From a virus (lineage: Duplodnaviria; Heunggongvirae; Uroviricota; Caudoviricetes): 10,286 nt of DNA. The translations under genes were made by a program, and so were the position numbers. Below the pieces are notes generated by a model. That model saw nothing but the letters and a program-made list of their open reading frames with translations, was not told the DNA's origin and ran no database searches. Below, one piece after another: positions 265 to 1,565 of this stretch. Positions within the stretch are counted from its first letter, which is position 1. The number at the start of each line of letters is the position of its first letter. The stretch is taken from the IMG/VR virus record IMGVR_UViG_2740892231_000002, positions 1 through 10,286 of that record; one strand, 5' to 3'.

Positions 265-552
265 TTAAGGTGTTACAGGGAACTGTCGGCGGGCGTGAAC
301 TACGTTAACAATTTCAATGCCTGAAATTGTCACTCGGTACAGAATAATGTAATTGGGGTGAGCTACAATTTCACGCAAACCTGGCACTCTGTCACTTGGC
401 GGGTATAAATACGGATGCTCAGATAATGGCTGAACGCAAGTCCTTAAGCGTTTCCATAAACGTTCTGCCGCATCTATGTCAAAGCGTGCAATATAGCTGG
501 TTATATCATCCAAGTCGGTATCTGCGCTTTCAAGCCATAACACGGGTAACAT
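265..552 (-). CDS. parE2: ParE/RelE-family type II toxin (ParE2-like), 95 aa
   Basis: Six-frame ORF. The translation has the ParE-like C-terminal core (REIVAHPNYIILYRV...IEIVNVVHARR). Its ATG directly follows the stop of the upstream antitoxin ORF (TAATG junction at 550-555). Confidence 0.8.
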   Translation of the reverse strand: MLPVLWLESADTDLDDITSYIARFDIDAAERLWKRLRTCVQPLSEHPYLYPPSDRVPGLREIVAHPNYIILYRVTISGIEIVNVVHARRQFPVTP

Positions 553-744
553 TTACTGCTCACTCCGTTCCTTGCGCATTTTAGCAAAGCGTTCTGCCAT
601 TCTACGCTCAACCTCGTCATGGGGAATTGCTGGGCGCGGATCTGCAAGGCTCGCTGCTACTTTCGCACGCAGCCATTCGTTGTAACTGTTTTCTTGCTCG
701 ACAGTTTCAAATTCAGAAACCATCGGTGAAAGGGCTGTGTTCAT
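553..744 (-). CDS. paaA2: PaaA2-like antitoxin, 63 aa
   Basis: The 63-aa translation MNTALSPMVSEFETVEQENSYNEWLRAKVAASLADPRPAIPHDEVERRMAERFAKMRKERSEQ closely matches my recollection of the PaaA2 antitoxin of E. coli O157 prophages. It sits immediately upstream of, and abutting, the ParE-like gene. Confidence 0.8.
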   Translation of the reverse strand: MNTALSPMVSEFETVEQENSYNEWLRAKVAASLADPRPAIPHDEVERRMAERFAKMRKERSEQ

Positions 745-1174
745 GGTGAACCTCGTTTTGTAAGTGCTGGTATTCTGCTTGGTTGACTTTTTGTTGTGCT
801 GCTAACCACCTTGCAACTATACGATCCATTGCTTCTTTTTTCTCCTTCATATCTTTAAGCATTTGCTGTTGATCTTCCTCTGGAAATGCCTCAAATGTTT
901 GAAGTAGTTCCTTTTGATTAGGGGTTATTTTTAATATATCCTGTGCCCTGTCTTTTTTTTCTTCATTTAATGGTAAGAAAAACCAATACTGAGGAAGTCC
1001 CGTTACTTCAGATAGTTTATCTAGATTAGCTGCCGTAGGGCTTGAGATACCACAAACCCACCGTTGCACGGATTGTTGAGCAATACCAATTCTGCGCGCA
1101 AGTCCTGCTTGGCTCCAGCCTTTTGCCAATAGAAGCATCTTAATTCTAAGAGCACTAATTTCGAGTACGCCCAT
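713..1174 (-). CDS. paaR2: HTH (XRE-type) regulator with a DicA-like C-terminal domain; PaaR2-like third component
   Basis: The ORF 713..1234 contains an XRE-type helix-turn-helix (LLAKGWSQAGLARRIGIAQQSVQRWVCG) and a C-terminal TPNQKELLQTFEAFPEEDQQ...KEAMDRIVARWLA motif. I place the start at the ATG at 1174 (MGVLEISALRIK...) because the first ATG at 1234 lies inside the upstream gene; the start remains uncertain. The symbol is assigned from context (first gene of a paaA2-parE2 operon), not from recognising the sequence. Confidence 0.65.
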   Translation of the reverse strand: MGVLEISALRIKMLLLAKGWSQAGLARRIGIAQQSVQRWVCGISSPTAANLDKLSEVTGLPQYWFFLPLNEEKKDRAQDILKITPNQKELLQTFEAFPEEDQQQMLKDMKEKKEAMDRIVARWLAAQQKVNQAEYQHLQNEVHHEHSPFTDGF

Positions 1175-1193
1175 CTGATATCTATATATCCCG

Positions 1194-1565
1194 TCAGGCT
1201 CGGCGACCTTGTCGTGCCAACCAACGTGCGACAAGATCTTCCATAGCCTCTTTTTTGTTTTTTAGTTCTTTTATGATCTCCTGCTGCTCATTATCAGGGA
1301 AAGCACTAAATATTTGTAGCAATTCTAATTGGTTAGGGGTTAATGCTATAGATCTTGATGATGGAGACTCTGTTATGTCTTCTGGTTCAATATCAAGATA
1401 TCCCCCAGGCATCCCATATGTTTGTTCAATACGTCTAGCTGCCTTTTCGCCAAACGTAGCTTTACCGCTCATTAACTGAGATAAGTAACTTTTCTCTTTA
1501 GGCGGCAAAGTCCTGTCTTTGAACCACTCTTTGAGGCGTAAACGCCGAATCTCTTTTGTTTCCAT
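1194..1565 (-). CDS. Putative prophage immunity repressor: Cro/CI-type HTH N-terminus plus DicA-like C-terminal domain, 123 aa
   Basis: Six-frame ORF. N-terminal motif EKSYLSQLMSGKATFGEKAARRIE; C-terminal TPNQLELLQIFSAFPDNEQQEII...KEAMEDLVARWLA resembles the DicA C-terminus and the PaaR2-like neighbour. It is transcribed divergently from the cro-like gene. Confidence 0.7.
   Translation of the reverse strand: METKEIRRLRLKEWFKDRTLPPKEKSYLSQLMSGKATFGEKAARRIEQTYGMPGGYLDIEPEDITESPSSRSIALTPNQLELLQIFSAFPDNEQQEIIKELKNKKEAMEDLVARWLARQGRRA

Follow-up and report, generated by a model that had tools for sequence, protein, structure and literature searches.

The closest described relative of the locus analyzed here is paaR2-paaA2-parE2, a three-gene system of prophage CP-933P of Escherichia coli O157:H7 that couples an immunity repressor to a toxin-antitoxin (TA) pair; our subject is a four-gene locus in a segment of IMG/VR record IMGVR_UViG_2740892231_000002 (the window, 10,286 nt; coordinates are window positions). 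CP-933P is a cryptic prophage, and its system is the subject of Hallez 2010 and Jurenas 2021. PaaR2 has been shown experimentally to be the leaderless, CI-like immunity repressor of this prophage (Jurenas 2021, PMC8630535), in which YdaS acts like Cro and YdaT like CII. PaaR2 and YdaS bind to a 97-bp intergenic region and to a second promoter located downstream of the TA genes; YdaS competes with PaaR2, and YdaT activates leftward transcription (PMC8630535). The locus is bistable and addictive, its regulator is reported to control TA expression and to octamerise, and the repressor, unlike that of lambda, has no LexA-like cleavage domain (PMC8630535). In O157:H7, the toxicity of ParE2, its neutralisation by PaaA2 and post-segregational killing are established, and the addictive operon stabilises the immunity region; the authors proposed that the TA pair guards this region against recombination with heteroimmune phages (PMC8630535).

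Two other kinds of phage locus serve for comparison. In lambda lysogens, rexA and rexB are passenger genes transcribed together with the cI repressor gene. The paaA2-parE2 genes have been stated to replace rexA-rexB (PMC9986795), and the small repressors of the Gifsy/DicA/RacR class are controlled by antirepressors (Lemire 2011, PMC3121763).

What is new in the window is a rare, conserved four-gene variant of the CP-933P system with two PaaR-type repressors. We found no mention of such a variant in the searchable literature, and no description of a tandem repressor pair in the literature consulted on the Gifsy/DicA/RacR class. The original prediction for this DNA had stressed the placement of an addiction module behind the immunity repressor; this coupling is real, but it has already been published for CP-933P (PMC8630535) and is not specific to the locus. 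Since it is established there, the present locus adds nothing on that point, and the real peculiarity, two PaaR-type regulators in tandem, had gone unrecognised.

Two PaaR-type regulators in one immunity region

The window comes from the early region of a lambdoid prophage of E. coli. Over positions 2-2400 it shares 99.8% identity with E. coli O91 RM7190 and with three further complete genomes, in which the prophage adjoins potC. We regard the region as almost certainly the immunity region of a CP-933P/Sp12-like prophage. Whereas PaaR-PaaA-ParE systems count three genes, four open reading frames (ORFs) lie here on the minus strand, and by similarity they are identified as genes for a PaaR2 orthologue, an XRE-type regulator (HTH2, with a helix-turn-helix, HTH, domain), a PaaA2-type antitoxin and a ParE2-type toxin:

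1194-1565, minus strand: PaaR2 orthologue, CI-analogue immunity repressor of 123 aa, probably leaderless (Sakai ECs_2279, PDB 7NKV)
1175-1193, minus strand: spacer of 19 nt that follows the PaaR2-type stop codon and precedes the ATG of HTH2, forming the novel joint of four-gene loci (30-34 nt in the others)
713-1174, minus strand: HTH2 regulator, 153 aa from the ATG at 1174, with an XRE-type HTH domain (residues 3-66), a linker, a helical C-terminal domain and a 26-aa tail (HTH_3, AlphaFold2)
553-744, minus strand: paaA antitoxin gene of the PaaA2 type, 63 aa, without a DNA-binding domain (Pfam PF21217, PDB 3ZBE)
265-552, minus strand: parE toxin gene of the ParE2 type, 95 aa (Pfam PF05016, PDB 5CW7_B)

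The RefSeq annotation of a 99.8%-identical E. coli genome gives the same genes with the same limits, in agreement with the predicted string of four co-oriented, minimally spaced genes. The two regulator genes are separated by 19 nt, the HTH2 ORF overlaps paaA by 32 nt (it does not end at 745, as had been supposed, but continues to 713), and paaA and parE have no spacing at all, the TAA stop codon of the former directly abutting the ATG of the latter. A simple scan found no terminator-like site between the four genes. The close spacing, the lack of a terminator match and a conserved hairpin after parE suggest that all four probably constitute one operon, transcribed from the PaaR2 promoter.

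The 1194-1565 product is 77% identical over its full length to ECs_2279 of the reference three-gene locus (ECs_2279-2280-2281) of the O157:H7 Sakai prophage Sp12, which is stated in the literature to be identical to CP-933P. Its residues 1-62 match the 'phage repressor protein CI' of PDB entries 7NKV and 8C3K (E=1.8e-31); this match covers the N-terminal domain, and the start of the 7NKV chain, MQKKE, is the PaaR2 N-terminus as determined by protein sequencing (PMC8630535). HTH2 resembles PaaR2 in the C-terminal domain only (40% identity over 75 aa, E=9e-19; about 62% over a core of 45 residues, counted by hand from the alignment). The labels first given to the two regulators, a DicA-like repressor at 1194-1565 and a PaaR in the middle, are therefore inverted: the PaaR2 search leads to 1194-1565, and it is the middle gene that fits the NCBIfam DicA model better (E=5.6e-15 over nearly the full length, against 2.7e-7 in the C-terminal part only). 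Neither protein reaches the cut-off of that model (NF007257, 101 bits; HTH2 scores 55.3 and the PaaR2-type protein 30.5), and both fall into phrog_5736; by these scores the two regulators are relatives of DicA and not DicA itself. Since 1194-1565 encodes a PaaR2 orthologue, the 'prophage repressor' is itself a PaaR. Like members of the Gifsy/DicA/RacR class, both regulators are about 120-150 aa long, lack a peptidase domain and match the DicA model; unlike that class, they stay below its cut-off, and no antirepressor gene was identified in the window.

HTH2, a PaaR1/DicA-like regulator, matches Pfam HTH_3 (E=2e-11), shares its C-terminal domain with PaaR2 and DicA, and is 55% identical over 128 residues to the repressor ECs_1069 of Sakai prophage Sp4. 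In its AlphaFold2 model, the DNA-binding domain (residues 3-66) has five helices and is confidently predicted, the linker is ill-defined, the C-terminal domain is helical and of moderate confidence (predicted local distance difference test score, pLDDT, 64-74), and the tail is of low confidence. A Foldseek search with this model returned HTH domains only (434 Cro, P22 c2 and the lambda cI N-terminal domain), with no match for the C-terminal domain. The ratio of nonsynonymous to synonymous substitution rates (dN/dS) is 0.16-0.23 for the whole protein, 0.08-0.22 for the DNA-binding domain and 0.15-0.30 for the C-terminal domain (dS up to 0.4), and the helix-turn-helix is nearly invariant across loci whose HTH2 proteins are 80-91% identical. 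HTH2 is thus under purifying selection, which is strongest in the DNA-binding domain, and probably is still a working DNA-binding protein.

The 26-aa tail of HTH2 is a read-through into paaA that stands in place of the usual 5-residue end of the KGRRA type. The extended frame is reached via different local sequences in the window and in O157:H16 strain 98-3133, and two other loci have a TAG stop codon and one extra base at the tail position (window 713-790 and its equivalents in L007, L009 and L010). The tail overlaps the ribosome-binding site of paaA, which might influence the ratio of antitoxin to toxin. In a further locus (L027), the PaaR2-type gene ends aberrantly on its 3′ side and HTH2 is cut short at 80 aa; paaA and parE are intact. 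This disruption could be decay or a sequencing error. A fusion of the two regulators by stop-codon read-through was considered and rejected: in the window the two genes are in different frames, and in L007, where the spacer is in frame, it holds another stop codon.

Protein searches bore out both family identities proposed for the TA genes, and the matches given here for the ORFs lie far above chance level. The 265-552 product matches Pfam ParE_toxin PF05016 (E=1.2e-16, score 61, cut-off 23) and the crystallised ParE2 of E. coli O157:H7 (PDB 5CW7_B, E=6e-56; 9 differences in 93 residues, about 90% identity). The 63-aa product of 553-744 matches Pfam PaaA2 PF21217 (E=1.1e-20, score 74, cut-off 27) and the crystallised PaaA2 of the same serotype (PDB 3ZBE, E=9e-35; 4 differences in 62 residues, about 94% identity). 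It matched models of PaaA2 and RelB antitoxins only and no ParD model, so that the pair is not a canonical ParD-ParE system with a ribbon-helix-helix (RHH) antitoxin. PADLOC gave no match for ParE, PaaA or the PaaR2-type protein, and generic HTH matches alone for HTH2. Both TA genes are under strong purifying selection (dN/dS among related loci of 0.03-0.08 for parE and 0.02-0.06 for paaA). By homology with CP-933P, PaaA would neutralise ParE and the pair would be addictive. TA pairs of this kind fall into two types, which are shuffled relative to the regulators; among 5426 complete E. coli genomes, 644 contain type-2 paaA-parE sequences.

A second, canonical TA pair is present in the nin-like region: a ParE-family toxin (7852-8151, minus strand; PF05016, E=3.6e-10) and its partner, a ParD/RHH antitoxin (about 8157-8414, minus strand; PF03693, E=1.5e-7). 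Counting the pairs at 265-744 and 7852-8414, two ParE toxins are thus encoded in the window, and their antitoxins are of different kinds. At the position of the second pair, other genes are present in the near-identical genome RM7190.

Relatives and probable origin of the four-gene form

Compared with the three-gene locus STEC17-183, the window contains about 430 extra bases, which extend from just upstream of the paaA ATG to the PaaR2-type stop codon. An equivalent insert is absent from all three of the three-gene reference loci (Sakai Sp12, STEC17-183 and phage Evi). HTH2 relatives of 132-133 aa (55-66% identity) are found in other E. coli prophages as the sole regulators of three-gene loci facing ydaS/ydaT. 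The same is true of ECs_1069, the only repressor of the Sakai Sp4 locus (ECs_1069-1068-1067), which we take to be paaR1-paaA1-parE1 of CP-933M, Sp4 being presumably equivalent to CP-933M and PaaR1 being placed by its position in Sp4. HTH2 shares the architecture of ECs_1069 (an XRE HTH domain with the common C-terminal domain); it differs in that ECs_1069 is a sole repressor facing its own operator region, whereas HTH2 comes second and has no such region, and in being followed by a type-2 PaaA/ParE pair, whereas that of Sp4 is of type 1. To judge by these alignments, a common C-terminal domain is combined with at least two repressor heads. Each head as a rule has paaA-parE behind it, and the window carries both heads.

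The junctions of the insert point to its source. In strain GF60 (locus L008), the stretch made up of the HTH2 3′ end, a 29-nt spacer and the paaA start has a single mismatch to a three-gene locus of the B type, P15-385, and in the other four-gene loci the HTH2-paaA spacer is recognisably related to that of the B type. PaaA of the window starts with MNT, as in B-type loci, against MNR in PaaR2-type three-gene loci. On the other side, the PaaR2-type gene is unchanged up to its stop codon with respect to the three-gene locus. As this gene is intact to the stop and the HTH2-paaA junction is of the B type, we place the joint at the short inter-regulator spacer. The four-gene form would, very probably, have been generated by joining a complete B-type unit (XRE regulator, paaA and parE), without its own operator region, behind a PaaR2-type gene. 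In this evolutionary sense the original prediction, a three-component module joined to the prophage repressor gene, was apt, given the B-type junction of GF60.

The four-gene form was found in 17 of 5426 complete E. coli genomes; between copies, the DNA diverges by 8-14% and the adjoining replication modules are not the same. Every IMG/VR locus with an HTH2 relative (8/8) shows the four-gene order. A search of 5.8 billion proteins set apart a group of HTH2-like sequences with at least 88% identity, all others having at most 69%, and the one protein of this group whose genetic context was looked up was again encoded in a four-gene locus. When an alignment of XRE-type regulators was used to scan one genome per species, none of 600 pattern matches was confirmed, and the phage collection contained neither a four-gene locus nor a close relative of the HTH2 DNA-binding domain.

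Escherichia phage Evi (LR597642.1) carries a three-gene PaaR2-type locus at 1490-2362, with a parE ORF that is unannotated in the record; the system is therefore not confined to cryptic prophages. Repressors of 244-246 aa (P0030, P0038, P0043 and P0046) combine two different tandem HTH domains with the shared C-terminal domain. Such double-HTH repressors (L012, 3001-5360; L013; L014) occupy the CI position, opposite a short HTH gene (in the Cro position) and ydaT, and their genes are followed by those of a HipA_2 protein and a DUF3037 protein, not by paaA-parE. The slot behind this repressor family seems to be a hot-spot for cargo genes.

The CP-933P-type switch and neighbouring features

Beyond the 1194-1565 gene lie two plus-strand ORFs, and the locus is framed by putative regulatory sites on both sides:

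164-195, minus strand: PL-like leftward promoter, TTGACT-18-TAAACT (195-166), overlapping an operator-like inverted repeat (promoter scan)
228-245, no strand assigned: stem-loop just 3′ of the parE stop codon, where the operon probably ends (hairpin scored on the plus strand)
1566-1667, no strand assigned: divergent operator/promoter region (OR), 102 nt, whose core aligns with Sakai Sp12
1668-1949, plus strand: ydaS, Cro analogue (Pfam YdaS_toxin PF15943, E=1.3e-9; phrog_35, E=1.2e-18; role from PMC8630535)
1946-1963, plus strand: YdaT operator TTGATTCATGAAAATCAA (TTGATT-N6-AATCAA) at the ydaS/ydaT border, an exact match
1953-2378, plus strand: ydaT, CII analogue (Pfam YdaT_toxin PF06254, E=3.2e-10; phrog_163, CII-like activator, E=4e-45)

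The OR core, ATTATCTTTAGTAATC...AAGCAAATACTTGACT, is conserved in Sakai Sp12. It was this alignment that we relied on, as the published half-site GTTTAGTAA is too short to be informative (20 matches in the window against 19 expected). A PR-like promoter, TTGACT-18-TAAACT (1605-1634, plus strand), has the same hexamers as the PL-like site at 195-166 on the minus strand, and a -10-like GATAAT (1572-1577) precedes the ATG of the 1194-1565 gene by 6 nt, likewise in Sakai. The operator-like repeat at 164-187 consists of 9-bp arms (TTAGTTTAT-N6-ATAAACTAA). The PL-like/operator block is kept in all PaaR2-type loci and replaced in the B-type locus L005; it fits the description of PL933P/OL (PMC8630535). 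The stem of the 228-245 hairpin is kept, with different sequences and a minus-strand T-run, in the related loci L008 and L002; the T-run of the window is weak. The YdaT operator, whose motif was defined previously (PMC9986795), occurs in the window as one exact match against 0.04 expected by chance.

The window therefore shares with CP-933P/Sp12 of O157:H7 the position in the immunity region, the divergent ydaS-ydaT genes, the OR core, the PL-like promoter and the YdaT operator, with identities of 77% for the repressor, 94% for PaaA and 91% for ParE. It differs in a 462-nt regulator gene added between paaR2 and paaA2 and in a paaA start and upstream spacer of the B type. By homology with CP-933P, the window repressor would act at OR and PL, YdaS would compete with it and YdaT would activate leftward transcription. 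As in lambda cI-rexA-rexB, passenger genes lie directly downstream of the immunity repressor gene, between it and PL; unlike those of lambda, they comprise a TA pair and a second repressor.

Two further observations concern the flanks of the locus. A leader of about 140 nt (about 20-160, minus strand) lies downstream of the PL-like promoter. It hardly varies between PaaR2-type, four-gene and B-type loci, despite the different promoters and operators of these loci. It may be a nut-like or other regulatory leader for a DUF1391-dicB operon; an Rfam search of the whole window, including the leader, returned no matches. Within the replication-initiator gene there are three runs of 10 N each (2915-2924, 3246-3255 and 3714-3723), each flanked by near-duplicate sequence of about 100-250 bp, in a repeat-rich region with GTCACG iteron-like motifs. 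These runs look like unmerged scaffold joins, and the X-containing ORFs listed there are artefacts.

Possible roles of HTH2

The explanation that we favour, with rather more confidence than doubt, is that the window holds a CP-933P/Sp12-like immunity region onto which a B-type unit was grafted, and that HTH2 may act in trans. A B-type unit stripped of its operator region would have landed behind a PaaR2-type repressor gene; the PaaR2 promoter would drive all four genes, the TA genes taking the place that rexAB has in lambda; and HTH2 would provide a second immunity specificity against, or over, heteroimmune relatives. This last step is tentative: it is the likeliest single role for HTH2, but we give it less than even odds. 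It is suggested because the DNA-binding domain is constrained and has no visible target in cis: OR is the same in four-gene loci as in loci without HTH2, and a B-type operator-like motif, TACAC-N7-GTGTA, has 3 matches in the window against 2.6 expected, none of them near the locus.

Several observations weigh against this explanation. The operator-like motif was derived by eye, and the loci used for it have regulators of only 60-66% identity. HTH2 is unstable at its 3′ end, which is canonical in GF60, short in two loci and, in the window and some further loci, extended by a read-through of 26 aa. The 1175-1193 spacer lacks 11 nt present in other four-gene loci, including a Shine-Dalgarno-like AAGAG motif, and HTH2 may be poorly translated in the window because of this loss. 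In L027, an IMG/VR locus of metagenomic origin with the four-gene order, both regulators are frameshifted (2279-2928 of that locus). Among the sequenced phages of the collection, the best identity of a repressor DNA-binding domain to that of HTH2 is at most 51%, and for this reason no target phage can be named.

Of the alternatives, the co-assembly of HTH2 with PaaR2 through their C-terminal domains fares best, although we consider it unlikely. In such mixed oligomers HTH2 might modulate the PaaR2 switch, add a second DNA specificity or serve as an antirepressor decoy. The relatedness of the two C-terminal domains, closest in the 45-residue core, is consistent with this, as are the reported octamerisation of PaaR2 (PMC8630535) and the natural proteins of the CI position in which two different HTH domains are joined to a single C-terminal domain of this sort (P0030 and others). 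Small repressors of the Gifsy/DicA class are inactivated by antirepressors, which show cross-reaction between heteroimmune prophages (PMC3121763), and HTH2 is 36% identical to the Gifsy-1 and Gifsy-2 repressors. However, an oligomerisation or antirepressor surface on the C-terminal domain is itself inferred, the pLDDT of that domain being 64-74, and the most constrained part of HTH2 is its DNA-binding domain. One could also imagine, with less probability, that two small repressors made from one promoter and having different DNA-binding domains but compatible C-terminal domains, whether mixed or side by side, give the lysogen two immunity specificities, the TA pair penalising loss of the block; double-HTH repressors, which have both heads in one chain, would be the fused counterpart.

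It is somewhat less likely still that HTH2 is the dedicated PaaR of the TA pair, acting through a promoter/operator inside the locus, with 1194-1565 as a merely adjacent immunity repressor. In favour of this reading, HTH2 would have come together with paaA and parE as a three-component unit, it shares 55% identity with the regulator of the three-gene locus in Sakai Sp4, and the CP-933P regulator is reported to control TA expression (PMC8630535). Yet the regulators of three-gene loci act from a divergent operator region which was not carried over, only 19-34 nt being present upstream of HTH2. A stringent scan found no promoter-like site upstream of paaA, the OR of four-gene loci is that of loci without HTH2, and the 1194-1565 gene, as a PaaR2 orthologue, is not merely adjacent.

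Least probable is that HTH2 has no function, having been left behind by recombination between heteroimmune prophages and retained through linkage inside an addictive operon. Its rarity (17/5426 genomes), its three different tails, the lost Shine-Dalgarno-like motif, the frameshifted L027 copy and the lack of a cognate operator in the window might suggest such a relic. Against this, dN/dS is low (0.16-0.23, with dS up to 0.4) and the helix-turn-helix hardly varies. All complete-genome copies examined, and 7/8 IMG/VR loci, have kept residues 1-127 intact, and HTH2 forms a clade apart from all three-gene relatives, whose identity to it is 69% at most; this separation speaks for long retention.

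The four-gene form is a natural experiment on the CP-933P system. Recombination between heteroimmune prophages has evidently occurred here and been kept, placing two repressors of different specificity in one operon. It also shows the repressor family to be modular, with a conserved C-terminal domain and exchangeable DNA-binding heads. Provided that the second repressor is active, such loci would offer a simple route to double immunity, or to cross-talk among the many lambdoid prophages of Shiga-toxin-producing E. coli.

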